Below, piece after piece: positions 783 through 64,000 of a DNA stretch of 64,000 nucleotides. The position numbers and the translations under genes were made by a program. This DNA is from Planctomycetota bacterium (GTDB taxonomy: Bacteria > Planctomycetota > B15-G4 > JADJEK01), in contig JBPOIU010000020.1 in the NCBI GenBank assembly GCA_052034255.1, forward strand, positions 777 to 64,776. The letters run 5' to 3'. Every line of letters begins with the position of its first letter. Within the stretch, counting starts at the first letter, position 1. Below the pieces are notes generated by a model. That model ran no database searches and had not been told where the DNA came from. It was given only the letters and a program-made list of their open reading frames with translations.

Positions 783-2042
783 TCAGGTGCCGATGATCTC
801 GCAGAGTCCGTTCGAGAACACAGCGCCCTGCGGGCCCGCTGGGTCGGCTTGGACTGCGTGGTAGTCGAACTCGATGCCGCTCAGGTTTGCGTTGTCCGGC
901 ACCGTGAACGGAAGGACGAAGTCGCCCGCTCCGGCGCCGGCGCCGGGCATCGTGAACGGCACCACGACCCACGGCGAGTTCAGATCGATCAGCAGAGTCC
1001 CACCCGCCAGCGGGACCGAACCCTTCTGCGTGCCGAGGAACAGGACCGTCGGCGCTCCGCCGAGGAAGTCGCGGAACTCGAGCGCCGCGGCCGCGCCGGG
1101 GCACGGCGAGAACAGGCCGCGCAGCTGCGGTTCGAAACCGCCACTGCCGACCATGCTGGCGCCGTAGCTCTTGAACGTGCCGGAGCACGGCACCGCGTCT
1201 TGCGGGACCGCGATGCCGACCAGTTCACCGAGTGCGAAGTCCTGGTAGATCGTCGTGACCTGGCCCGTCGCGTCGATCGAGAACACGCCGCCGTTGCGGC
1301 CGCAGGTCAGCAGCGCTCCGTCGCGCGAGAGCTTGAGGTCGCTCGGGTGGACGAGCACGCCCGGTTGTTCGGCGAAGAGTTCGGCTTCCGCGGTGTCGAG
1401 GCGGAAACGCACGATGCGATTGCCGTTGTACATCGCGCAGAACATGTTGCCCGAGCCGTCGATCACGAGTCCGCCGGGCTGGTCGATCAACGGCGACGCC
1501 GAGAACAGCGACGCGTTCCACTGCGCGTCGTACTTGATGATCGTGTTGCCGTTCAGGTTCGCGACGTAGAGGTTGCCGTCGGCGTCGTACGCGAGTCCGT
1601 CGGGCCAATCGAGCAGGTCGTTCGACATCGCGTCGTCGACTAGCAACGTCTGCGTGCCATCCATCGCGACGTGGATGAGCTTGTTGCCCTTCATGTCCGA
1701 CATGATGAAGCCCGAGCCGTCGCGCGCCGGAATGCAGGTGACCGGCATCTCGAACAAGCCGCCCGCCGACAGCGGCGCGACCTGACCGTTCGGATCGATC
1801 TTCATCATCGCCGGCCAGCCGCGGTCCGGCATGTAGAGATACCCGTCCGGCATGAACGTGCCGTAGTGCGGGATCAGCATCGGGGTCGCCCAGTTGGTGG
1901 CGACCAACGTGTCGGCATCGAGCCGCACGATCGCGCCGACCGACGGCGCGGACAGGTAGTAGTCACGGTCGGACGCCGATGCGGTGGCGGCGACGAAGCC
2001 GAGGGCCAGACAGGACGCCGAGATCGACAACGAGTACTTCAC
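783..2042 (-). CDS. secreted NHL/SMP-30-like beta-propeller protein with the shared C-terminal domain
   Basis: GTG start at 2042 preceded by AGGAGG at 5-nt spacing. Signal peptide KYSLSISASCLALGFVAATASA. Propeller-like repeats (DGNLYVANLNGNTIIKYD, GLVIDGSGNMFCAMYNGNRIV). C-terminal 100 aa alignable to four other proteins in this window (ends SNGLCEIIGT). Confidence 0.7.
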   Translation of the reverse strand: MKYSLSISASCLALGFVAATASASDRDYYLSAPSVGAIVRLDADTLVATNWATPMLIPHYGTFMPDGYLYMPDRGWPAMMKIDPNGQVAPLSAGGLFEMPVTCIPARDGSGFIMSDMKGNKLIHVAMDGTQTLLVDDAMSNDLLDWPDGLAYDADGNLYVANLNGNTIIKYDAQWNASLFSASPLIDQPGGLVIDGSGNMFCAMYNGNRIVRFRLDTAEAELFAEQPGVLVHPSDLKLSRDGALLTCGRNGGVFSIDATGQVTTIYQDFALGELVGIAVPQDAVPCSGTFKSYGASMVGSGGFEPQLRGLFSPCPGAAAALEFRDFLGGAPTVLFLGTQKGSVPLAGGTLLIDLNSPWVVVPFTMPGAGAGAGDFVLPFTVPDNANLSGIEFDYHAVQADPAGPQGAVFSNGLCEIIGT

Positions 2043-2209
2043 GCGATCCTCCTTCGAGAGAGCGGTCGAGGTCGTCCCTCTGGAACGGCTCGTCGACGGA
2101 GGTCGTGCCAGGGGAAACCGCCGCGCCGCACGCGAAAGCGTCCCCGCTGCCACGCGCATGCACTGCCGTCCCGCCGGGTCGCTCGAGCCCGAAGCCCGCG
2201 CGGGGCGCG

Positions 2210-2644
2210 TTACGCCGGCTTCGTCACGGCGCGCAGCAGACTGCCGTCCTCGGACGACTTGAAGCCGCGCTTCTCGAGCCAACGCGCGACGGCTTCGCGC
2301 TGCGGATGCGACGCGCGCACGACGTTGTAGACGTAGTTGAGACCGCGCGCGCGCGCCTCGGCCGTCAGGTGCTCGAGGATGAACGTGCCCGCGCCGTGAT
2401 TGCGTTGATCGCTCGCCGTCGCGAGCAGGATCTCGCCCTCGCCCCAGACCACGTCGAGCCAGCCGAAGCCGACGACCTTGTCGCCGGACTCCGCGCGCCA
2501 CCACGTTCCCGGGACGAGATCACCGACCTTCAACTCCTTGAAGCGGCGATCGAACGTGCCGACCGGCGCATCGCCGACGATGCGCGCCTTGTTCGCGTCC
2601 CAGCGCGCCGGATCTTCTTTCACCCACTTCAATGCGGTCGCCAT
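2210..2644 (-). CDS. GNAT family N-acetyltransferase
   Basis: ATG at 2644 with GGAGGA 4 nt upstream. Acetyl-CoA binding motif region (RNHGAGTFILEHLTAEARARG). Confidence 0.7.
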   Translation of the reverse strand: MATALKWVKEDPARWDANKARIVGDAPVGTFDRRFKELKVGDLVPGTWWRAESGDKVVGFGWLDVVWGEGEILLATASDQRNHGAGTFILEHLTAEARARGLNYVYNVVRASHPQREAVARWLEKRGFKSSEDGSLLRAVTKPA

Positions 2645-2729
2645 CGCGTCCTCCGTTCGCAGGGGAGCCTCCGCGGAGGCTCCCACCTTGGAATCGTCCA
2701 GCGCGCCGACGCGCACACGCCGTGCCGCG

Positions 2730-4118
2730 TCATTCGTCGCCGAGGGTCGACTCGAGCAGGTTGAACTTGCTCGTCAGATCTCCGGCGTCGAACGCTTCGG
2801 TGAAGCAGGCCGCGACGTGCGCCGCGATCTCCTTCGTCGCGGGCGAGCCGCCGTTCTGCGCCGCGATCGCGGCGTAGCGCGTGATCGTTGCATCGTTCGG
2901 GAAGCGCGCGAGCGCAGCGATGAGATCGGGATCGTCGCTGCGAAGCGTGTCCTGCTTCGCGTGGAGCAGGGAGCCCGCGAACCGCACGGAATCCGTCCGC
3001 TCGAAGCCCATGCGATCGACGTCGGCCAGCGCGGGATCGTCGGTCATCGCGTACAGCGCAGCCAGCGTCTCGAGCGCGATCACGTCCCCGGCCTCACCGC
3101 GCCGCTTCAACTCATCACCGTGCCGCTCCAACATCTGCGCGCCATCTCCCACTCCGGCGTCGACCAGCATGCGCATCCATTCCCCGGTCAAGCGTGGACT
3201 GACGGGAAGGGCTGCGTCGTCGCCGATCAACCGCAACGTCGCGAGCAGCTTCTGCTGGTCCGCGGACAAGCCCGCCGACTTCGGACTCGCCAGCATGTCC
3301 TCCAACGATCGATCACGGCTGACGCGCACGTCCGCGTAGGCGAGCGCTTGTCGTACGCGCAGGTCGTCCACCGGCAAGCTCGCGCGCATCCGTTCGAGAT
3401 CCGCCTTCAAGTACTCGTGGTGGATCCCGCTGTTCCACCAGTCCCGCTTGAAGTTCAAGTCCAGCAGGATCAGTTCCTCCGCCGCCTCCACGTCGCCGGC
3501 ATCGACGGCTCGCAGCAACGCATCGCGGCGCGCGAACGACGACGGACCGAAGTGGATCCAGCACGCGGCCTTCTCGACCCGGGTGCTGTCCGGGATCGTC
3601 TCCAACGTGACGCGTCGCCAAGAGTCCACCGCGTCCCGCGGTCGATCGAGTAGCAACAGACACTCCGCGCGCAATGCGTGGATCACGTTCTGGCTCGATC
3701 CGAGCGAAGCGTCGTCGCTGAGGGTTCGATACAGCGCCTCCGCCTCGGGGATCCTGCCGGCGCGGTGGAGTTCGAGCGCCCATTCCATGGCAACCGGCGC
3801 GATGGCGGGGGCTTTGGCGTACGCCTCCTCGTGCAGCGCCATCGCGAGCTCGGGCTCCATGTCGAACAACGTGTTCCCGAGCACGAACGCGTGGGCCGCC
3901 GTGCGCCGGTCCTTCGCGACGACGTCGAGCAGAGCTTGCGTCGCCTCTTTCATGCGTCCTTGCAGCAACCGTCGCTCGTTCGCCTCGAGCACGGGTGCGT
4001 AGTCGGCTCGCGCCCGTTCCAATGCGTCGCGAAAGGTCGCGATCGGGTCGTCCGTCGCGCTCCACGTCAATGCCGCGAAAACGACCAACGATCCGGCGTC
4101 CATGAAATGCCCCCGCAT
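2730..4118 (-). CDS. hypothetical alpha-helical (TPR-like) protein
   Basis: Long ORF with normal composition. ATG at 4118 overlaps the stop of the upstream gene by 1 nt (TGATG). An alternative start lies at 4103. No confident family assignment. Confidence 0.45.
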   Translation of the reverse strand: MRGHFMDAGSLVVFAALTWSATDDPIATFRDALERARADYAPVLEANERRLLQGRMKEATQALLDVVAKDRRTAAHAFVLGNTLFDMEPELAMALHEEAYAKAPAIAPVAMEWALELHRAGRIPEAEALYRTLSDDASLGSSQNVIHALRAECLLLLDRPRDAVDSWRRVTLETIPDSTRVEKAACWIHFGPSSFARRDALLRAVDAGDVEAAEELILLDLNFKRDWWNSGIHHEYLKADLERMRASLPVDDLRVRQALAYADVRVSRDRSLEDMLASPKSAGLSADQQKLLATLRLIGDDAALPVSPRLTGEWMRMLVDAGVGDGAQMLERHGDELKRRGEAGDVIALETLAALYAMTDDPALADVDRMGFERTDSVRFAGSLLHAKQDTLRSDDPDLIAALARFPNDATITRYAAIAAQNGGSPATKEIAAHVAACFTEAFDAGDLTSKFNLLESTLGDE

Positions 4119-8208: not shown

Positions 8209-10628
8209 GCCCCACCGCCGCGGCGGGCGCGCACGAAGAACAGCGCCAAGCCGGCCAAAGCGAGCATCAGGTACGTCTCGGGTTCCGGCGCCGCGGAGAT
8301 CTCGGCGGAGGCCGGCTCGGGCGCGCTCAACCCGAACCTCGGGTATTGCGCGTCGGTCTCGAGCACGACCGCTCCGGTGACCGGAGTCACGAGCCGCGCC
8401 GCGATGGCGAGCTTCTGCGCCTGCTCCACGTGATCCGCGCGCGTCGTCCCGAGGAGCCGCAGGACGTCGTCGTACACCGCGAGCCGTCGCCAGATGTCGG
8501 CGGCGTGCTCGACGCGCAGGCCCGTCGCGCGCGCGGCGTCGTCCGCGCGCGCACAGACGAGGCGCGCGGGGGCCCCGGCGGTCTCGACGTCGACGAACGC
8601 GCTGGCGAGCGCTTGCCCGACGTCGGCATCGACGCGCTCGTCGACGTCGAGACCGGCTTCGCGGAATCCGCGCAACACGGAGTCGGCGACCGCCGTCGTC
8701 GCGATCGACACCACGCGCGGAGCGCGCGACGCCAGATCGAGCGCGATCGCGAGCTGCGACTCACCCTCGAGGCTCATCGCTTGCGGCGCGTGGACCCACA
8801 CGATCCGGGCGTCGTCGCGTGGTCCGATCAGATCCAACGCCAACGTCAGCGCCGCCGCGTTGTCGCGACCACCGACGCAGGGCACGACGCGCAAGCGCTG
8901 CGTCGCCTCGCGCACGCGCGTCGGCAGCGCCGGCGAGATTCCGCCGGTCGTCAGGAGCTCGGGGCGATCCCCGGCGAGCACGATCGCGACGTCGAAGCGC
9001 GGATCGATCGCGTCGAGCGCGTCGGCCACGGCCCGCAGTCGACCGTCCATGCCGCGCGAAGCATCGATCACGACGACGAATGCCGACGCACCCGGCACCG
9101 CCGACGTCGCCGCCTTCGCACTCCACGTCACTCCGGAGTCGTCGTTCCACAGCCGTGCGCGCGTGGGCTCCACCACCGCGATGCGAGCCACCGTCGGTCG
9201 CGCGGCGAGATCCGCGTGCGTGAGCGCACCGGTGAGTCGATCCTCCGCGTCCGCGCGCAGCGCCGGCGACATGCGCGCGACACCGAGCGCGCCGGCGATC
9301 ACGACGCTGTGACGTACGGGCGCGAACCCGTCGGCCGCGACCGCGAAATCGCCCTTCTCGAAACAAGGCAGTGCGACGTCGGCGAGCCCGGTCGGATCCG
9401 GGCTCAACGCTCCGATCACGTGCAGACGCATGCGCATGCGCCCTTGCGGCGGAATCGGGAAACACGACAGACGCACGCGCCGCGGACCATCGGACACGAC
9501 CAGAGCCGGATCGCGGCCGCGCGCGGTGACCTCGCGATACGCGGTACTCACGTTGCTCCGCGTGCCGAACGCCGCCTCGCGCGGCTGGCCATCGACCCAC
9601 AACGTCAGCCCCCCGACCACCGCGCGCGCCGGCAACAGGATGGTTCCGATCGCTTCCGCCGGCCACATCCGTGGATTCTCGAACTCGATCTCCCAAGTGG
9701 TCACGATCGTCGCAGCGACGGGATCGACGTGCGTGTCGTACGCGGAGCGCTGGAGGCGCACGGCGCGCTCGTGCGTCGCGAATCCATCACGAAGGACGGG
9801 CGACGCGAACCTGCCGTCGACGTCGAAGTTCTCGTCGAACCCGAACCGGCTCCGCGGTCCACGCGGCAGAGGTAGCGATTCGCCGAAGGCTTGGAACACG
9901 ACCCTGCTCAGGCGCTCGTCGCCGTTCCATTCCGCGTCGGTCAGGCAATACGCGATCGGGTCCGTGGCCGGCCGCAGGCCCTCCTCGAACACGCGCGCGA
10001 CGACGTCCGCACTGGAGTAGCGGCGGAGTTGGTCGATCGCGACGGCCCGCGTCACGGGGGTCCCGGTCGTCGCCGCATGCAGGCGCACGCGGGTCCACGT
10101 CCCGAGCGGATCGGCGAACACCATGGCCAGCAAGCCGGCGGCGCACCACCCCACGCGCGCGGCGATCGGGAGCGCCGGGTCCTCGCGATGCAGACGCCGC
10201 AGCCAGCCGATCAGCGTCAGCAACACGATGAACGGGGACAGCGACAGGAATCCGAGCCCGATGGCCAAGATCGCGACCGCGCTGATCGGCAGCATCGGTG
10301 TGAAGTACGCGGCGAAGAACAGGGTCACGCCGAGGACGACATGGGCCGCCGCGTGCTGCCGCGCCAGCACGGCGGGCGCGGCCCGATCGCACACGACGAG
10401 CCACGTCATCAGCGCCGCGATCGACGCATAACCGACGACGTGCAGTGTGGAGCGCAGCGGATCGAAGAACATCTCGGCGCAGATGTTCGAGGTGAGCTCG
10501 ACGACCAGCGCGAGGATCGGCAGGACGACGCCGCAAAGTACGGTCCAACCATCGCGGGTCGCGGTGGATTGGCGGTGATCGGCGATCGGGACGGGGGGCA
10601 CGGCGGCATCGGACACGGCGTTCTCCAT
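8205..10628 (-). CDS. PEP-CTERM protein with N-terminal 4-TM region, VIT domain and vWA domain (resembles the 'XrtN system VIT domain protein' architecture)
   Basis: C-terminus PEPETYLMLALAGLALFFVRARRGGGA is a PEP motif plus TM helix plus basic tail, i.e. a canonical PEP-CTERM sorting signal. vWA-like FVVVIDASRGMDG. VIT-like region after four N-terminal TM helices. Confidence 0.7.
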   Translation of the reverse strand: MENAVSDAAVPPVPIADHRQSTATRDGWTVLCGVVLPILALVVELTSNICAEMFFDPLRSTLHVVGYASIAALMTWLVVCDRAAPAVLARQHAAAHVVLGVTLFFAAYFTPMLPISAVAILAIGLGFLSLSPFIVLLTLIGWLRRLHREDPALPIAARVGWCAAGLLAMVFADPLGTWTRVRLHAATTGTPVTRAVAIDQLRRYSSADVVARVFEEGLRPATDPIAYCLTDAEWNGDERLSRVVFQAFGESLPLPRGPRSRFGFDENFDVDGRFASPVLRDGFATHERAVRLQRSAYDTHVDPVAATIVTTWEIEFENPRMWPAEAIGTILLPARAVVGGLTLWVDGQPREAAFGTRSNVSTAYREVTARGRDPALVVSDGPRRVRLSCFPIPPQGRMRMRLHVIGALSPDPTGLADVALPCFEKGDFAVAADGFAPVRHSVVIAGALGVARMSPALRADAEDRLTGALTHADLAARPTVARIAVVEPTRARLWNDDSGVTWSAKAATSAVPGASAFVVVIDASRGMDGRLRAVADALDAIDPRFDVAIVLAGDRPELLTTGGISPALPTRVREATQRLRVVPCVGGRDNAAALTLALDLIGPRDDARIVWVHAPQAMSLEGESQLAIALDLASRAPRVVSIATTAVADSVLRGFREAGLDVDERVDADVGQALASAFVDVETAGAPARLVCARADDAARATGLRVEHAADIWRRLAVYDDVLRLLGTTRADHVEQAQKLAIAARLVTPVTGAVVLETDAQYPRFGLSAPEPASAEISAAPEPETYLMLALAGLALFFVRARRGGGA

Positions 10629-56662: not shown

Positions 56663-59113
56663 TCAATACGTGATGCGCACGTGCTCGACGTTCGACAGGT
56701 TCGCCTTCGTGCCGCTCGACACGATGGCTTGGAATGCGACGTCGAACGGCGCCGGCAAGTTCGGCGGCAGCGGCAGCGCGAGGCTGCTCGGCGCGCTGGC
56801 CCACGGCAACACCAAGATCGGCAGTCCCGTCTGGATGAACAGCGTGCCGTAGTCGCCGAGTTCGGCCTGGCCGTCGAAGCCGATGACGAGCAGCGTCGCG
56901 AGTGCCGGCGTCCCGGTCACGTCGAACGTCAGCGTGCCGCCCGAACCCGCGAAGCCGGTGATCTGCAATCCGACGTTCGTGAACTCGAATGCGCCCATGT
57001 CGAGCCGGCGCACGCCATCGAGATTGCCGTCGGTGAAGCGCGGTGCTCCACCGGCGTCGGCGCCCGTGGCGCTCGCGCTCGGCGTCGCGGTCTCGACGCA
57101 CGGCGAACTCGCGAGCAGGCGCAGATCGCCGCTCGTGGCCGCGACGAATTGCGGGTTCCCGCCGATGTTGCCGTTCGAGCCTTGGAACTGCGCACTACGC
57201 GAGGAATGGACGCGCGCCGCGCTCAACCCGACCGTCTCGGCGCCGGCCGTGCCGAACACGATCGAGTCGAGGACGTCGCCGGTCCAGCCCGTGGCGACGA
57301 TGCCGGCGCCGTTGCCGCCGTGGACGGTCGCGTTGCGCACCGTGAACGAACCGCCCGACAAGCGCAGTCCGGCGTCGTTGCAGCGATCAGCGACGAAGTC
57401 GCGCGCGTCGCCGGACAGCGCCGACACGCGAATCCCGTCGTGCGCGCCGAAGTCGGCGCGGACGCCGCGCGCTGAAACCGCACTCGAGTCGAGGTTGACG
57501 CACGGCGTGAAGCCGACACCGGCGTAGCGCACGCGCAGCCCGGCGATCGAGCCGCTGCTGCCCGCGGCGTACGACACACCGCTCCACGTGTCCGTCAGGC
57601 CGACCGTGGGACCGTCGCCGTTCGTGTCGCCGCCGAACTCGTCGTCCTTCAGTGTCGTGAACACGACCGGCTCCGATCCGTCCGCGACGACGTGCATCGT
57701 GCCGGACACCGCGGTCGAGCCGTGGCCTTCCCATTTGAAGATCGCGCCGCGCTCCAGCGTCAGCGTCTGGCCCACGGGAACCGTCAGCGTCGTCGCCATC
57801 ACGATGCCGCCGTTCACGACGTTGCGCTTCGAGATCGTGGTCGGCTGCGTGACCACGCCGTTCGTCACGCGCAAGAACTGGCCGGGCTGCGTGCCGAGCG
57901 CCACGCAATCGACGAACGCCGAGACCGCGGTGATCGGCAGGTTGTTGACCGCCGTGTTGAAGTTGTCCTGGAACGCGCAGCGCAGGAACGTCGGCGACGC
58001 CGGCTGTCCGTTGAAATCGATCGCGGAGTGCTGGCCATCGCGCAGCAAACAGTCCGTGACCGTGATGTCGGCGCCGAACAGTTCGAGCGCCGCCGTGAAT
58101 CCGACGCCGGTGTACCGCACGACCGTGTTGCGCAGCGTGCTCGCACTCGCGGTCGACTGGAACGCGAGTCCGCTCCACGTGTCGGTCGCGCCGACCGACG
58201 GGCCGTCGTTGTTCGTGTCGCCGCCGTATTCGTCGTCCGGCAAGTACGTGAACACCACGGGGTCGTTCTGCTCGCCGTCGGTGATCAGCGTGCCGCTGAT
58301 CGCGAATTGGACACCGAACGTGACCTTGACGACGACACCCTCCTGCAGCGTCAGCGTGGCGCCGCTCGGCACGCTGAACGTCGACGGGAACACGAGCGCG
58401 TCGTTCAACAGGTCGTCGGTCGTGATCTCGATCGCACCGGTCATCGTCGAGGCGCCGACGCGCACGTAGTTGCCGACGCCGGTCCCCGTCGCCGTGTTGC
58501 CGGAGAACTGGGGCAGCGCGTCGAGCGTGACGCCGGTGATGCTCGGCTGACTGCCGGAGTTCGTCAGCGTGCAGGACGTCACGATCGGCAGCGCGCCGTT
58601 GTTCAGCCGCAGCAGGCCGTGCTTCCCGTCGCGCAACACGCTGCGCGTGAGGGTCAAGTTCGACTGGTCGATGTCGATCGCGGGAGCGAAGCCGACGCCG
58701 CAGAAGCGCACGTCGACGCGATCGAGCACGCTCGCGTCGGACGCCGGTCCGAAGCCGAGGCCGCTCCATTGATCGGGCTGGCCGAGCGACGGTCCATTGC
58801 CGTTCGTGTCGCCGCCGGCCGAGTCGTCCTGCTGCGACGTGAACACGATGGGTTGCGCCAGCGTGCCGATCGCCGACAGCGTGCCTTGGACGTTCAACCC
58901 GCTGCCGTTGAACTTCAGGATCGCGCCGGGCTGGATCGTCAGCGTCTGGCCGACCGGAACGGTCAGTGTGCCGCTCGCGTGATAGACGCTCCCCGAGGTC
59001 AGCGGCCCACCCGAGCCGTCGAACACCGAACCGGACAATGGCACTTGCGCGCGAGCGAACGCGGACAGCGCGACGACAACGAGCGAGGCGAGAACGGGAC
59101 GGGGAGCGTGCAT
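56663..59113 (-). CDS. secreted right-handed parallel beta-helix repeat protein with the shared C-terminal domain
   Basis: Signal peptide MHAPRPVLASLVVVALSAFARA. Many imperfect 22-25-aa beta-helix coils (Gly/Asn/Thr/Val-rich; motifs such as RVRYAGVGF and CLLRDGQH repeated). C-terminus ends SNVEHVRITY. Confidence 0.7.
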   Translation of the reverse strand: MHAPRPVLASLVVVALSAFARAQVPLSGSVFDGSGGPLTSGSVYHASGTLTVPVGQTLTIQPGAILKFNGSGLNVQGTLSAIGTLAQPIVFTSQQDDSAGGDTNGNGPSLGQPDQWSGLGFGPASDASVLDRVDVRFCGVGFAPAIDIDQSNLTLTRSVLRDGKHGLLRLNNGALPIVTSCTLTNSGSQPSITGVTLDALPQFSGNTATGTGVGNYVRVGASTMTGAIEITTDDLLNDALVFPSTFSVPSGATLTLQEGVVVKVTFGVQFAISGTLITDGEQNDPVVFTYLPDDEYGGDTNNDGPSVGATDTWSGLAFQSTASASTLRNTVVRYTGVGFTAALELFGADITVTDCLLRDGQHSAIDFNGQPASPTFLRCAFQDNFNTAVNNLPITAVSAFVDCVALGTQPGQFLRVTNGVVTQPTTISKRNVVNGGIVMATTLTVPVGQTLTLERGAIFKWEGHGSTAVSGTMHVVADGSEPVVFTTLKDDEFGGDTNGDGPTVGLTDTWSGVSYAAGSSGSIAGLRVRYAGVGFTPCVNLDSSAVSARGVRADFGAHDGIRVSALSGDARDFVADRCNDAGLRLSGGSFTVRNATVHGGNGAGIVATGWTGDVLDSIVFGTAGAETVGLSAARVHSSRSAQFQGSNGNIGGNPQFVAATSGDLRLLASSPCVETATPSASATGADAGGAPRFTDGNLDGVRRLDMGAFEFTNVGLQITGFAGSGGTLTFDVTGTPALATLLVIGFDGQAELGDYGTLFIQTGLPILVLPWASAPSSLALPLPPNLPAPFDVAFQAIVSSGTKANLSNVEHVRITY

Positions 59114-59194
59114 CGGACGAACTCCTGGCGGGCATGCCTTGGCCTGGAGTTGCGCGAGCCGAGCGCGCCTGGACCACGAAATCGCGAAGGAACG

Positions 59195-59554
59195 CTATTT
59201 CGTCGCGGCCTTCGCCAGTTCGAGGTACTTGCGGTACGTGACGCGCGACAACAGCTTGTTCTGCACGACGTGGATCGCGCTCGCAACTTCTTGACGATCC
59301 ATGGGATGAAGTTCGGGCAAGTCGAAGAAGAAGCCGGCGCACTTCGCGGCCGCGGCCCAACAGTCGGCCTCGGCGGGCGTCATGCCGGCGCCCAGCACGA
59401 ACTCCCGATCGCGCTCGAGATCGGGATCGCCGGCGGCCGCGCCCTTGTCGTCGTCCGCGGTCGCGATCGGCATGAGACCGACGGCGCCGGCGGCGAGCAG
59501 CAACGCGCGACGGGTCGGGTCCATCAAGACATCGTCCATGGGTCGGTTCTCCAA
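59195..59554 (-). CDS. small Tat-signal hypothetical protein
   Basis: DPTRRALLLAAGAVGL twin-arginine signal. 115-119 aa. Immediately upstream of, and on the same strand as, the beta-helix protein. Start at 59554 or 59539. Confidence 0.45.
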   Translation of the reverse strand: MENRPMDDVLMDPTRRALLLAAGAVGLMPIATADDDKGAAAGDPDLERDREFVLGAGMTPAEADCWAAAAKCAGFFFDLPELHPMDRQEVASAIHVVQNKLLSRVTYRKYLELAKAATK

Positions 59555-59632
59555 CGGAGCGGCGGTTCGCGCGGCAGTTTATGGTGTGCCCGCGTCGCCG
59601 TGTACGCACGCCGGCCCACCCTCGGAGATGCG

Positions 59633-60322
59633 ATGACTTCCCGCCCTCGGTTGCGCGCGATGACTCCGCTGCTCGTCGTGTCCGATCTGCAGCGTTCGAT
59701 CGACTTCTACGTCGACAAGCTCGGCTTCACCGACGCGAACTCGTGGGGCGAGCCCCCGTGCTTCGCGATGATGCATCGCGACGGGCTCGACCTGATGTTG
59801 AGTCGTGCGGAGCAGCCCGAGCACGTCGCGCCGCATGGTCGATTCGGCGTCTGGGATCTGTTCCTCAGCGTCGGCGACGTCGCGGCCGAGCGCGCGGCGT
59901 TGCTCGCGGGCGGCGTGGCGATCGACAAAGGCCCGACCGACACGTTCTATGCGATGCGCGAGATCGAGATCCTCGACCCCGACGGGCACCGCGTCTGTCT
60001 GGCGCAGGACATCAGCGGCGAGGCACTCGTGAACGCCGACACGTACGCCGGCACGCTCGACCTCGGGCCGAAGCAACTGCGTCTCGTGCTGAAGGTCTCG
60101 CGCGCCGGCGACGGCTTCGTCGCGCGGCTCGACAGCCTCGATCAGAACGCGATGAACTTGCCGATCGATCGCATCACGATCGAAGGCGCGTCGATGCGGT
60201 TCGCGATGGACGCGATCGGCGCGAGCTTCGTCGGCACGCTCGACACTGGCTGCACGCGCATCGATGGCCGGTGGACGCAGCGTGGTTCGTCGTGGCCGCT
60301 GGTGTTCACGAAGACCGTGTGA
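59633..60322 (+). CDS. VOC (glyoxalase/bleomycin-resistance) family protein with C-terminal extension
   Basis: LVVSDLQRSIDFYVDKLGFT ... EIEILDPDGHRVCLAQ (VOC fold) plus about 100 extra C-terminal residues. GGAG 6 nt upstream of the ATG. Confidence 0.7.
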   Translation: MTSRPRLRAMTPLLVVSDLQRSIDFYVDKLGFTDANSWGEPPCFAMMHRDGLDLMLSRAEQPEHVAPHGRFGVWDLFLSVGDVAAERAALLAGGVAIDKGPTDTFYAMREIEILDPDGHRVCLAQDISGEALVNADTYAGTLDLGPKQLRLVLKVSRAGDGFVARLDSLDQNAMNLPIDRITIEGASMRFAMDAIGASFVGTLDTGCTRIDGRWTQRGSSWPLVFTKTV

Positions 60323-60438
60323 ACTCGAGCGGACTAGGTCGTGGCGCATGGGAACGCGGCATGCGACACTCCGCGCCCGCGTCGGGCCGCCTCCACGCGC
60401 CCGACGAGCCCCTCCCACACGACCCAGGAGTGTTCCCA

Positions 60439-62157
60439 ATGTCCGTGCTCTCCCCCGTTCGCGCCGTGTTGATCGGCGCGACGTGCGTGCTTCCGACTGC
60501 CCAGGCCCAATCCGTGCTCTTCACCGCCGCGGGCGACAGCGCCAACGACACCTTCGGTCAATGCGTCGACATCGTCGGTGACGTCAATGGCGACGGCTTC
60601 GCCGATCTGATCGCCGGCGCCTGGCGCGACGATCCCTCCGGCAAGAGCGACGCCGGCACGGTGCGCGTGATCTCCGGCAAGACCGGGCTGACGTTGTTCA
60701 CGATCCCCGGCGATCTCGCGAACGATCACATGGGATTCGGATCGAGCGGCGCCGGCGACGCGAACGGCGACGGCTTCGCCGACATCTGCGCCGCGGCGGA
60801 CGAAGCCGACGTCGGTGGCTTCGTCAACATCGGCGCGGCGAAGATCGTGTCCGGCGCGACCGGCGCGACGCTGTTCTTGATCCAAGGCGACAACGGCGCC
60901 GACCTGTTCGGTTGGTCGTCCGCGTACGCCGGTGACTGCAACGGCGATGGTCGCGGCGACACCGTGCTCGGCTCGCTGCAAGACGACACGACGGGCAAGA
61001 CGAACTGCGGTTCGGCCGCGGTCCATTCGGGCGCGAACGGCGCTCTGCTGTGGAAGGCGTTCGGCGGACTCGCGAACGACACGCTCGGCGATGCGGTCGG
61101 CGGAGTCGGCGACGTGAACGGCGACGGCTTCGACGATGTGATCGCGGGCGCGCCCAGCGCCGATCCGGCAGGCGCGAGCTCCGGTCAGGCGCTCGTCTTG
61201 TCCGGCGCGAATGGCGCCGTGTTGTTGACGATCAACGGGAACTCGGCGAGCGACGGGCTCGGCGGCTCGGTGTCGGGTGCCGGCGACGTCGACCTCGACG
61301 GCGTGCCGGACATCGTGGTCGGCATCCCGGGCGAGGACAACACCGGCGCGAACTCCGGCAACGTGCGCGTCGTGTCCGGCGCGACCGGAGCCGTGCTGTG
61401 GTCGTTCGACGGCGACTCGGCCAGCGACAACCTCGGCGTCGCGGTGCGCGGCGCGGGTGACGTCGATGGCGACGGCTACGCCGACATCGTCGCCGGAGCG
61501 AACGGTGATGACGACAATGGCGCGGCGTGCGGCGCGCTGCGCGTCTGGTCCGGCAAGACCGGCTCCGTGCTCGCGACCTTCTATGGCGACGCGGCGGGCG
61601 ACGGCCTCGGCATCTCCGTCGGCGCCGGCGGCGACGTCGATGGCGACGGCTTCGACGACGTCTGCGCCGGAGCCACCGGCGACGACGACGGCGGCGCGGC
61701 CTCCGGCACGATGCGCGCGTTCTCGTTGATCCCGACGGGAGTCGACACGTTCGGAACCGGTACCCCCGGTTGCGGCGGAACCACTCGCCTGAACGGCAAT
61801 CGCGTGCCCAACGTCGGCGCCGCCGACTTCGCATTGATCGGCGACAACGCCCCGCCCGCCACCGTGGGCTACTTGCTCGTCGGCGATGCGGCTGACGTGC
61901 CCGGTACGCTCGGATTCGGCAGCAACGCGCTCATCCACGTGGCCCTGCCGCCGCTGAGCAGCTTCTTCTTCCTCGGCAACTCGTTCGCCGACGCAAAGGG
62001 TTCGCACGTCGCACCGGTCCCGCTGCCGGCGTTGCCGCAGCTCGCGGGCTTCCAGGCGACGTTCCAAACCCTGTGGGTCTGGCCGACGCCGTGCCCCAAT
62101 CTGGGACCGTTGAACGCCAGCTCGTCGAACGGCGTCACGATCACGATTCAACCGTGA
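60439..62157 (+). CDS. secreted FG-GAP repeat (integrin-alpha-like 7-bladed propeller) protein with the shared C-terminal domain
   Basis: AGGAG RBS. Signal peptide. Seven repeats of the type GDVNGDGFADLIAGA / DxDGDGxxD. C-terminal 130 aa ending SNGVTITIQP. Confidence 0.8.
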   Translation: MSVLSPVRAVLIGATCVLPTAQAQSVLFTAAGDSANDTFGQCVDIVGDVNGDGFADLIAGAWRDDPSGKSDAGTVRVISGKTGLTLFTIPGDLANDHMGFGSSGAGDANGDGFADICAAADEADVGGFVNIGAAKIVSGATGATLFLIQGDNGADLFGWSSAYAGDCNGDGRGDTVLGSLQDDTTGKTNCGSAAVHSGANGALLWKAFGGLANDTLGDAVGGVGDVNGDGFDDVIAGAPSADPAGASSGQALVLSGANGAVLLTINGNSASDGLGGSVSGAGDVDLDGVPDIVVGIPGEDNTGANSGNVRVVSGATGAVLWSFDGDSASDNLGVAVRGAGDVDGDGYADIVAGANGDDDNGAACGALRVWSGKTGSVLATFYGDAAGDGLGISVGAGGDVDGDGFDDVCAGATGDDDGGAASGTMRAFSLIPTGVDTFGTGTPGCGGTTRLNGNRVPNVGAADFALIGDNAPPATVGYLLVGDAADVPGTLGFGSNALIHVALPPLSSFFFLGNSFADAKGSHVAPVPLPALPQLAGFQATFQTLWVWPTPCPNLGPLNASSSNGVTITIQP

Positions 62158-62262
62158 CCGGAGCCCAAGTTCCGGACGACTCCCGACCGATGAAAAAGGC
62201 GGATTGACGCGCGCGCGGAGCCGCTAGACTCCCCGGCTTCGCGCCAAGCGCCGAAACGACGC

Positions 62263-62337
62263 TCCCTGGTAGCTCAATGGTAGAGCACCCGGCTGTTAAC
62301 CGGGTTGTTGTAGGTTCGAGCCCTACCCGGGGAGCCA
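62263..62337 (+). tRNA. tRNA-Asn: tRNA-Asn (anticodon GTT), CCA encoded
   Basis: Cloverleaf folded by hand. Acceptor stem TCCCTGG/CCGGGGA with one G-U pair. Anticodon stem CCCGG/CCGGG with loop CTGTTAA, giving anticodon GTT. T-arm GTAGG-TTCGAGC-CCTAC. 3' GCCA. Confidence 0.85.
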
Positions 62338-62362
62338 ATTCAAGCCGCCACGAGCGGCATCG

Positions 62363-62396
62363 AGCCCGTCGGCCGCCGGCCGGCGGGCTCTTTTCG
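62363..62396 (+). terminator. rho-independent terminator after the tRNA
   Basis: 12-bp GC-rich stem AGCCCGTCGGCC / GGCCGGCGGGCT (one G-U pair), 3-nt loop, followed by CTTTTCG. Confidence 0.6.
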
Positions 62397-63057
62397 TGGG
62401 CGCGCACGTAAGCGGCGCAACGGGCGAGAGATGTGGCGGCTGGCTCCGAGGCACCATCGTTCAGTTTCGCTGTTCAATGCAGCGCGCCAGAGAGTCCGCC
62501 CGCAGGGCGAAAACGGCGCTCTCGGACTCTCTCCCGAGGTGCAGAGAGCGTGCACTTAACAGCCGAGCGCGCGTCAGGACTGTGCTGTTAAGCGCTTCGA
62601 TTCGAGTCCCGAGTGGTGCCAATTTCGGGTCGGGCGTTCTCCGGTGTTTACGCCGTCAAAACCATGGTTTCCGGCAACACCGGACCAAACAGGGGGTGAT
62701 GCGAAATATCGCGCTCCGCTAAACAGCCGGGCCGCCGGGAGTCCGGACGGCGCAGTCGGAGTCAGCCCATTTCTGTTGAGCGGACGGTACAAATTTCGCA
62801 GCGGTGGTGACTGGTGTCGGCCGCGGATTGGACGGAGCGACGAATCGCTGAACGGTGGTCTACGGCGCGCTGGGAGGCCGGGAATGCCGGCTTCGGCGGT
62901 CCCGCGGTCGCGGCAGAAGTCGGTGGCGAGGCCGCCGGAACGCGCAGGGACGTGGACCGTGAGGGCCGCGTGAACGGTCACGGCCGGCGACCTGAGCCCC
63001 GTAGAAGCATCCCGGAGCACGTCAGAGCCACTCTGCCGGTGACGCACGGCGGCAGGT

Positions 63058-63365
63058 TCAGCATCGTGCGTCGAGCGTTGCAATCAGCCGGGTGAGCTCG
63101 GCGGCATCGAAGCCCGGCGCGACCGCGACGCGCACGCCGGACGTGAGCGTCACGTCGAAGCTCTTCGGAGATTCCAGGGCGGCGGTTTCGCGCGTCGACG
63201 TCAGACCGACGAAACCCCGCGGTGCGTCCTGGACAGAATGCGGTGGTAGTAGGCCAGCCGCCAGATCGGCTCGCCGCTGATCTCCGACAGAGATCTGAAG
63301 CTCAGCCCCCCGCGCTCCCGTCGCTTGAGCAGGGCGAGCATGCGCTCGCGGATCGTTGTCGCCAT
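63058..63365 (-). pseudogene. IS66-family tnpA (orf1)-like gene remnant, frameshifted
   Basis: The ATG at 63365 (GGAGGA 7 nt upstream) encodes MATTIRERMLALLKRRERGGLSFRSLSEISGEPIWRLAYYH, then a stop after 56 aa. A second frame continues to ...FDVTLTSGVRVAVAPGFDAAELTRLIATLDARC, matching the conserved C-terminus of IS66 Orf1 proteins (IEIxLxGGxRVRVdxxVDxAALrRVLxAL). No tnpB or tnpC follows. Confidence 0.4.
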
Positions 63366-63527
63366 CGTCGTGTCCTCCGACGAGGAGCGTCGACGATCGG
63401 GTCAGGGGCGGGAAGGTGCGCTTGGCCGAACGCGTACGGCTCACCTGCACCCTGATGAGAACTCGGTAGTGGAAGGCGAGCCGCCAGGTCGGCTCGCCGC
63501 TGACTTCGCCGAGCGCTCTGAAGGTCG

Positions 63528-63683
63528 GTCACTCGCATTTGCGTCGCTTAAGCAGCGCGAGTATCCGCCCGCGGAACTTCGTGGCCGTCGCCGGTACCCC
63601 AGATGCGGACTCTGGGTCGGAGCTTCTGGCGGGGAACTTGTCCTCCCCGGACGCGGTCGAAATGGCCGGTTTTGAATTCGACA
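63528..63683 (-). pseudogene. tandem duplicated copy of the tnpA-like 5' region, truncated by an in-frame stop
   Basis: MSNSKPAISTASGEDKFPARSSDPESASGVPATATKFRGRILALLKRRKCE*. The 130-bp segment 63466..63594 is an imperfect direct repeat of 63244..63372. GGAGG RBS 3 nt upstream. Confidence 0.35.
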
Positions 63684-63689
63684 TACGCC

Positions 63690-63714
63690 TCCGTGTGCCA
63701 TGAACTCACACGGA
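63690..63714. promoter_or_regulatory. perfect palindrome TCCGTGTG-N9-CACACGGA immediately 5' of the duplicated HTH-like ORF (candidate operator)
   Basis: 8-bp perfect inverted repeat with 9-bp spacer. It overlaps the RBS of the minus-strand ORF at 63683. It sits at the transition to AT-richer DNA. Confidence 0.35.
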
Positions 63715-63782
63715 CTATCGTTATCGTTTTCTGGACAATCACTTGCACGCACAAGACCGCGTCTATTTACACACCGAAGATG

Positions 63783-63915
63783 TGGTTAATTGAAAGCACG
63801 GACGGACGGTTACACTTGTCTAATGCGCAGACTGCGTCGAATGCGGTTCGACGCACGACCACGCTGGTTCACAAGAACGAGTTGTGGATAATTGAAACGA
63901 ACCCCAGACGGTTAC
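63783..63915. repeat. two direct copies of a bipartite motif TGGnTAATTGAAA-N13-ACGGTTAC, about 100 bp apart, in the AT-rich window end
   Basis: 63783..63813 tggttaattgaaagcacggacggacggttac and 63885..63915 tggataattgaaacgaaccccagacggttac. Local GC is far below the window average. Confidence 0.4.
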
Positions 63916-64000
63916 CATGAGCCCGCTGAACGCGCTACTGTACATATACTTTAAGTACGCGATCTGCCGGCGGCGGCCATAGTATTGTAACACTGTTGAT

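Follow-up and report, generated by a model that had tools for sequence, protein, structure and literature searches.

A tRNA-Asn gene at the likely edge of a strain-variable, mobile-DNA-rich segment in a Planctomycetota genome

What lies behind a tRNA-Asn gene on contig JBPOIU010000020.1 of a Planctomycetota bacterium (assembly GCA_052034255.1), and does the 3′ end of that gene mark the border of a genomic island? The window analysed here is a stretch of 64,000 nucleotides of this contig, and the locus in question is its last part, positions 62263–64000. The preliminary description of this DNA read it as a probable integration hotspot or island boundary and proposed a comparison with sister genomes. 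That comparison supports the reading through a discontinuity at the tRNA gene and a different cargo beyond it. The DNA from 62370 onward is likely to be the tRNA-proximal edge of a strain-variable segment, rich in mobile DNA, that is anchored at the tRNA-Asn gene.

The evidence comes from L159, a 13.8-kb JGI contig of a near-identical sister, reached via protein P0006. Over window positions 58901–62369, which hold two genes, the tRNA gene and the 32 nt after it, the two sequences are mostly 99–100% identical per 100 nt, with 96% and 98% in two of the intervals. The tRNA-Asn genes agree at 75 of 75 positions, and the copy in a more distant sister, L092, is also identical. Identity to L159 then falls to 69–86% over 62370–62800, stands at 96–98% over 62801–63100 and at 80–91% over 63101–63437, and is lost altogether past 63437/8. 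Since about 99–100% identity upstream gives way to a difference of 15–30% directly downstream, the downstream DNA must have been exchanged, as ordinary divergence would not produce such a step. Contigs of independent samples (L163 and L164) also have the L159-type allele behind this tRNA gene, and several contigs end exactly at the repeat of an IS66-family insertion sequence (IS) that is described below. Two marks of a tRNA-gene island are present: an intact tRNA gene at one end and, as L159 shows, a break in similarity between close relatives where the tRNA gene ends.

A third allele is found in L155 and L156, contigs of a distant metagenome-assembled genome (MAG) deposited at NCBI. They align to window positions 62340–63438 at 77% identity (blastn), and the multiple alignment extends to 62313. 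Of the last 28 nt of the tRNA gene 23 are matched, and of the preceding 50 nt 21. No tRNA was detected in L155 or L156, and a search for truncated tRNA genes in L155 returned terminator look-alikes only. In this MAG the block thus adjoins no more of tRNA-Asn than its last ~25 nt, a fragment from the T-loop to the 3′ end. Islands in tRNA genes are known to regenerate the target gene and to leave a displaced fragment (PMC4383910), which the piece in L155/L156 resembles, and Asn tRNA genes are known island hotspots in Klebsiella (PMC4891358). The three alleles have in common a segment of 57 bp at 62313–62369, which is 98% identical between the window and L159, 89% between the window and L155 and 91% between L159 and L155. 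Identity drops to 42% on the tRNA 5′ side (L155) and to 69–74% on the other side in all pairs. Beyond it, in 62370–62800, no two of the alleles are much closer than any other two (69–83%).

These data suggest that the downstream DNA, starting inside the terminator hairpin at 62370, was replaced through recombination in the tRNA gene or close beside it. The likeliest route would be repeated site-specific integration of related elements at the ~57-bp identity segment, which would then contain the attachment (att) site. The ~670-bp non-coding block that follows is probably the conserved inner arm of such an element from an old integration, into which IS66, IS4 and IS21 elements would have moved later, wearing it down. 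The main rival is homologous exchange alone, in which no tRNA-directed integration took place: the region would be an ordinary intergenic one with IS insertions, and the identity cliff would result from homologous recombination with a diverged donor or from gene conversion. The mosaic profile, with its 96–98% segment between divergent ones, speaks for such exchange, and the tnpA gene within the region has many paralogues able to convert it. Nevertheless, no paralogue able to convert the block 62370–62800 is known. Two further points count against exchange alone: divergence of all three alleles sets in at one and the same nucleotide, right behind the 57-bp block with its start in the T-loop, and the sharp fall in identity on the 5′ side leaves L155 with the tRNA 3′ fragment only. 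We regard homologous exchange without integration as unlikely.

Several observations weigh against integration at the tRNA gene, the first two of which also favour that rival. Neither an integrase nor a direct repeat of the tRNA 3′ end was found in the window, which ends 1.66 kb past the tRNA gene, or in 9.3 kb of L159, where in particular a tyrosine integrase and a second tRNA 3′ end are absent, and the gene lists of L155, L156, L159 and L160 hold no tyrosine or serine integrase. Every mobile gene actually seen encodes a DDE transposase. The 96–98% mid-segment shows that homologous exchange has acted too, and by itself such exchange could make the identity cliff. The first 1.1 kb past the tRNA gene is common to the relatives in the form of diverged alleles, and homology is lost absolutely only where the IS66 element ends (63437), well past the tRNA gene. 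Beside the tRNA fragment of L155 lie what seem to be ordinary metabolic genes, and their GC content is native. The window-type allele is known from the window only, L092 ending 25 nt after the tRNA gene, and L159 is a metagenome contig.

The features of the locus are collected in Table 1. As first described, an intact tRNA-Asn(GTT) gene is followed by a strong terminator. A GC-rich hairpin and a U tract, the hallmarks of an intrinsic (Rho-independent) terminator, stand directly 3′ of the gene, with a 13-bp stem at 62362–62390 that contains 11 GC pairs, TTTT directly after it and a folding z-score of −3.0 against shuffles. Three of the stem pairs are altered on both sides in L155. The tRNA-Asn gene and its terminator are working housekeeping parts.

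Table 1. Features between the tRNA-Asn gene and the end of the window.
Feature	Position	Strand	Remarks
tRNA-Asn, anticodon GTT, intact	62263–62337	+	ARAGORN; Rfam RF00005, 69.3 bits
57-bp candidate att identity segment, from the tRNA T-loop to 32 nt past the gene	62313–62369		conserved in the window, L159 and L155
Intrinsic terminator of the tRNA gene	62362–62395	+	hairpin, then T run
Non-coding block (spacer), ~670 bp	62370–63040		at least three deeply diverged alleles sharing conserved sequence islands
IS66 tnpB stub	63041–63064	−	ATG overlaps the tnpA stop (ATGCTGA); ~8 codons, MLNLPPCV
IS66-family tnpA pseudogene, copy 1	63058–63365	−	2-nt insertion at 63220–63221 relative to homologues
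Left inverted repeat of IS66-family element (GTACGCGTTCGGCCAAGCGCACC...)	63414–63437	−	outer tip at 63437
Second, divergent IS66 tnpA fragment (~−25 to ~codon 52)	63446–63613	−	in-frame TGA at 63529–63531; abuts the inverted repeat of copy 1
20-nt word TCGAAATGGCCGGTTTTGAA	63657–63676		repeat associated with an IS21-family element in L155
Fragment matching DNA directly 5′ of an IS4-family transposase gene	63680–63758	−	87% over 79 nt to L001 11710–11788
Low-GC tail	63760–64000		GC 0.50; two 36-nt direct repeats

What is the block between the terminator and the insertion sequence? The absence of a convincing open reading frame (ORF) from about 650 bp, reported at first, holds. The spacer has no Pfam or NCBIfam match, and its GC content by codon phase is flat (0.66/0.66/0.66, compared with 0.67/0.55/0.89 in the neighbouring gene). 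It is non-coding as far as testable, and no promoter-like site was found in it. A scan of 62400–63050 with the Rfam covariance models, suggested earlier as a check, gave no match at E ≤ 10 and assigns no housekeeping RNA to the spacer. The sole real match is the tRNA itself, and the others, all far below the gathering scores, fall on the terminator, the tRNA or the flank 5′ of it.

Three inverted repeats reported in the spacer exist, at positions 7–12 nt away from those first given: GAGAGTCCG (62490–62498) with CGGACTCTC (62523–62531), TTAACAGC (62556–62563) with GCTGTTAA (62584–62591), and CCGGTGTT (62641–62648) with AACACCGG (62676–62683), the last pair around AAACCATGGTTT (62659–62670). The hairpins span 62490–62531, 62552–62595 and 62641–62683, and the first alone clearly beats its shuffles (z −3.05). 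For the spacer as a whole the folding z-score is −0.44 (+ strand) and −2.3 (− strand), so that "hairpin-rich", the term of the preliminary description, goes only weakly beyond chance as an overall label. A structured RNA was considered for the spacer and rejected, the covariation term of RNAalifold being unfavourable (+3.7). A second, decayed tRNA-Asn 3′ half was suspected by eye at 62584–62625 (GCTGTTAA...TTCGAGTCC...GGTGCCAATT) and was likewise rejected. Local alignment there is no better than with shuffles, no Rfam match is obtained and an anticodon stem is missing.

Parts of the block are conserved. Although the three alleles otherwise differ by ~25%, the strings GACTCTCTCC.GAGGTGCAGAGAGCG.GCACTTAACAGCCGAG and CCAAACAGGGGG.GATGCGAAATAT hardly vary among them. 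In the palindrome at 62552–62595 the arms are invariant across the three alleles and the loop is scrambled. The word GGCTGTTWA, which belongs to the anticodon arm of tRNA-Asn, has three occurrences in the window, where 0.04 would be expected, and all copies lie in this region: at 62291–62299 within the tRNA gene, and at 62556–62564 and 62720–62728 on the − strand of the block. All of them are kept in the L159 and L155 alleles. These words and islands could be protein-binding sites, a lead that comes from three alleles only. One may go further and suppose that the islands are functional, as a small RNA, as arm sites of a recombinase or as an origin of transfer, and have been kept by selection. 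Near-invariance, the invariant palindrome arms and the excess of GGCTGTTWA all fit selection. However, the lack of an Rfam family, the covariation term, the unremarkable folding energy of the + strand and the lack of a promoter-like site count against it, and three alleles cannot separate constraint from the history of recombination. Selection on functional islands seems to us quite improbable as the explanation of the block, less likely than exchange alone is as the explanation of the cliff.

Next to the block stands the remnant of an insertion sequence, reported at first as a frameshifted IS66-like tnpA, and it is such a gene. With the frame repaired, TnpA has 101 amino acids and 13 relatives at 65–80% identity, 11 of them covering the full length. 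None of the relatives has a Pfam domain, and those that are named are called hypothetical. The window protein matches NCBIfam NF047595 weakly (E 0.0016–0.014, far below the cut-off), and a weak match to an NCBIfam IS66 TnpA model is seen in 8 of the 14 family members. A search with a family profile brings up remote members in soil metagenomes that pass the NCBIfam IS66 TnpA cut-off and are followed by DDE_Tnp_IS66. Intact elements with the same type of tnpA occur in contigs L096 (=L161) and L158. There tnpA overlaps, through ATGCTGA, a tnpB gene that scores 105 bits on IS66_TnpB, above the NCBIfam cut-off, and in L096 tnpB is followed by a tnpC gene with 345 bits on transpos_IS66, again above the NCBIfam cut-off. 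Because intact relatives carry tnpA, tnpB and tnpC, the assignment to IS66 is correct.

Seen against the IS66 family as modelled in NCBIfam (NF047593/NF047595, NF033819, NF033517), the element has a homologous tnpA, and its intact relatives show the three-gene order, the ATGCTGA overlap and terminal inverted repeats. It differs in that the TnpA subgroup is divergent, with no Pfam match and only 16–19 bits to the NCBIfam TnpA models, and in that the window copy is frameshifted, with tnpB cut after 8 codons and with tnpC, the right inverted repeat and a target duplication missing. IS66-family inverted repeats typically start with GTAAGCG. Those of the present element start with GTACGCG (GTACGCGTTCGGC).

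The ends of the element can be placed by comparison. More than 15 loci whose flanks are unrelated (L001–L011, L096, L097, L155–L160 and L162–L164) were aligned to the window, and every alignment stops at 63436–63440, which defines the tip of the left inverted repeat, and the matching right repeat lies after tnpC in L096, at 2262–2281. Intact TnpB of L096 starts with MLSLPPSVRIFLAREPVD and shows the same ATGCTGA overlap as the stub. At 11 array loci homology to the window ends at 63041–63048. A search with L096 TnpB (tblastn) found no tnpB beyond ~8 codons in 62300–64000, and one with L096 TnpC found no significant match in the spacer or in the whole 64-kb window. Between the tRNA gene and tnpA no right inverted repeat was found, so that of the two inverted repeats and the 8-bp target duplication of a complete element only the left repeat is present. 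The string GTAAGCGGCG at 62408 agrees with the repeat at no more than 10 of 23 positions, and its flanks, GCGCGCAC and GGCTCACC, read directly, are not duplicated. The spacer was also considered as decayed IS66 interior and this was rejected, as it holds no residue of tnpB or tnpC and no right inverted repeat. Nor does it resemble the stretch of L096 that separates tnpC from the inverted repeat.

The window copy of the IS66 element is a dead remnant. It probably settled beside the block after the latter was in place, reading towards the tRNA gene. A deletion would then have taken tnpB from codon 9 on, together with the whole of tnpC and the right end. What stayed behind would be the left inverted repeat on its own and tnpA, which was later frameshifted. 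Alternatively, the solo tnpA could be a domesticated DNA-binding regulator and not a pseudogene, given that this family of ~100 amino acids keeps open frames in many loci without tnpB and tnpC. The 2-nt frameshift of the window copy is hard to reconcile with a working regulator, as are a 13-nt insertion in the L155 copy and a 21-nt insertion in the helix-turn-helix region of the L159-type copy, and substitutions show no third-position excess. Domestication of tnpA is highly improbable.

The lone IS66 end at 63437 forms a second, absolute breakpoint, past which the cargo differs in every genome examined. In the window the DNA beyond it consists of an IS66 tnpA scrap, scraps of the IS21 and IS4 types and low-GC DNA, and the sister and the MAG have different cargo. 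In L159 the inverted repeat is followed by the 3′ remnant of an IS4-family element, a cassette of 53% GC with a gene for a 539-aa HEAT-repeat protein, IS481-like transposases and then PhoD. In L155 (7955–9829) and L156 (7577–9328) the DNA directly outside the IS66 remnant (GC 0.54–0.59) holds an orphan toxin tip associated with an Rhs core (TIGR03696, 53 bits) and then a small ORF that by its position is likely to be the immunity gene. In L155 this region is interrupted by an IS21-family element bounded by TGGCCGGTTTTGAA repeats, with IS481-like genes further out. At the equivalent position, relatives have cassettes with a GC content of 0.53–0.59.

The scraps of the window can be traced in part. 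The preliminary description took the sequence behind the IS66 repeat for a tandem partial duplicate of tnpA with a premature stop. A second copy with an in-frame TGA is indeed there. It is 71% identical to copy 1 over 164 nt (63446–63609) and 75–78% identical to tnpA copies in L001, L002, L096 and L097, and since it is closer to copies elsewhere than to copy 1, it is a piece of another element and not a recent tandem duplication. The word TCGAAATGGCCGGTTTTGAA occurs once in the window against 0 expected, and a 14-nt core of it occurs four times in and around the IS21-family element of L155. The transposase gene of L001 whose 5′ flank matches the IS4-type fragment scores 296 bits on NCBIfam transpos_IS4_3.

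The low-GC tail of about 300 bp with direct repeats is confirmed as described. Its GC content of 0.50 compares with 0.69 for the window, and a GC profile, proposed earlier as a check, makes it the sole stretch below 0.58 in 64 kb. The two 36-nt repeats (63778–63813 and 63880–63915) are 75% identical, and a 15-nt core occurs twice against 0.03 expected. The tail is probably the start of foreign cargo. A copy of the 36-nt repeat, whose core is TGTGGnTAATTGAAA, is also present at L001 11911–11946, and there too ~125 nt separate it from the IS4-type 5′ segment. The repeat may be a subterminal binding site of the IS4-family element, the ends of which are not definable in L001. A sequence at 63955–63971, GTACGCGATCTGCCGGC, resembles the tip of an IS66 inverted repeat and faces the window end, at most a hint of another IS66 copy beyond 64000. 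As a further IS66-like end at 63955 (GTACGCGATCTGCC) it was rejected, being within chance expectation, with similarity that stops after 14 nt.

Could the block and the lone IS66 end be more than debris? They may be imagined as a maintained docking module that frames a site where low-GC cassettes are exchanged between planctomycete strains. If so, the fragments would be parts of a working system and not inert debris, and the swapped cargo would include such items as the Rhs toxin tip with its likely immunity gene, the HEAT-repeat gene and other genes. The comparison with orphan cassettes of Rhs polymorphic toxins applies to the relatives only, where a toxin tip and a small ORF lie outside the IS66 end in L155/L156 and the same type of tnpA occurs among Imm32 and Imm53 genes elsewhere; the window itself, unlike such cassettes, has no visible toxin or immunity gene. 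We consider a docking module a long shot, slightly less probable than functional islands.

Integration at the tRNA gene, the preferred reading, can be set against tRNA-gene islands as defined by Islander (PMC4383910). The likenesses are an intact tRNA gene at the edge, an abrupt change of sequence history past its 3′ end, low-GC cargo specific to the strain, and the tRNA 3′ fragment on the same DNA in a relative. The differences are that no integrase or displaced fragment is visible here, that the proximal 1.1 kb is shared as diverged alleles, and that the sharpest boundary is an IS end. The locus is an ordinary tRNA-linked variable region littered with dead insertion sequences. Nothing in 62400–64000 is likely to encode a working protein, and the stretch should be annotated as entirely non-coding or pseudogene. 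A modest novelty lies in the IS66 subgroup, whose divergent TnpA is missed by current domain libraries: a family of ~100 amino acids that has no Pfam match and is labelled hypothetical where it is named is the TnpA of this subgroup. In addition, a variable region linked to tRNA-Asn is marked in a poorly studied phylum. On present evidence no new biological question is opened.

The contigs used for comparison show some arrangements of their own. L155 encodes at 1754–3757 a 667-aa IS481-like transposase that has a C-terminal extension of ~310 amino acids and whose first 38 residues pass the cut-off of NCBIfam IS66_ISAeme5_TnpA (35.8 bits, cut-off 28). The next protein matches rve weakly, and homologous DNA is present at the same relative position in L159/L160. 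In planctomycete-like metagenome contigs (L002 5000–13500 and L006–L011, for instance L009 4500–13500) this type of tnpA occurs in tandem cassettes of 2.0–2.2 kb. In each unit tnpA is followed by a shortened tnpB stub, then by the C-terminal portion of a transposase of the IS481-like kind and finally by variable small genes, Imm32 and Imm53 among them. No Rhs core lies within 10 kb of these cassettes. They look like an array of immunity genes whose repeat unit is built from IS fragments. In L159, ARAGORN reports a tRNA-Gln of 90 nt at 2705–2794, inside and antisense to the PhoD gene, which is probably a false positive.

Upstream of the tRNA gene, 60439–62157 encodes a secreted-looking FG-GAP repeat protein of 572 amino acids (Pfam FG-GAP, E 1e-26) with hundreds of paralogue-level relatives across Planctomycetota MAGs; the sources of the relatives likewise point to a planctomycete. 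A search of GTDB genomes for this neighbour gave paralogue-level matches only (≤45%), none adjoining a tRNA-Asn gene, and orthologues at 61–64% identity are not syntenic. In L092, where the FG-GAP protein is 90% identical, the tRNA-Asn gene and 25 nt after it occupy 9704–9803, and the contig ends just before the terminator hairpin. The position of this break is consistent with variable DNA or repeats past the contig end.

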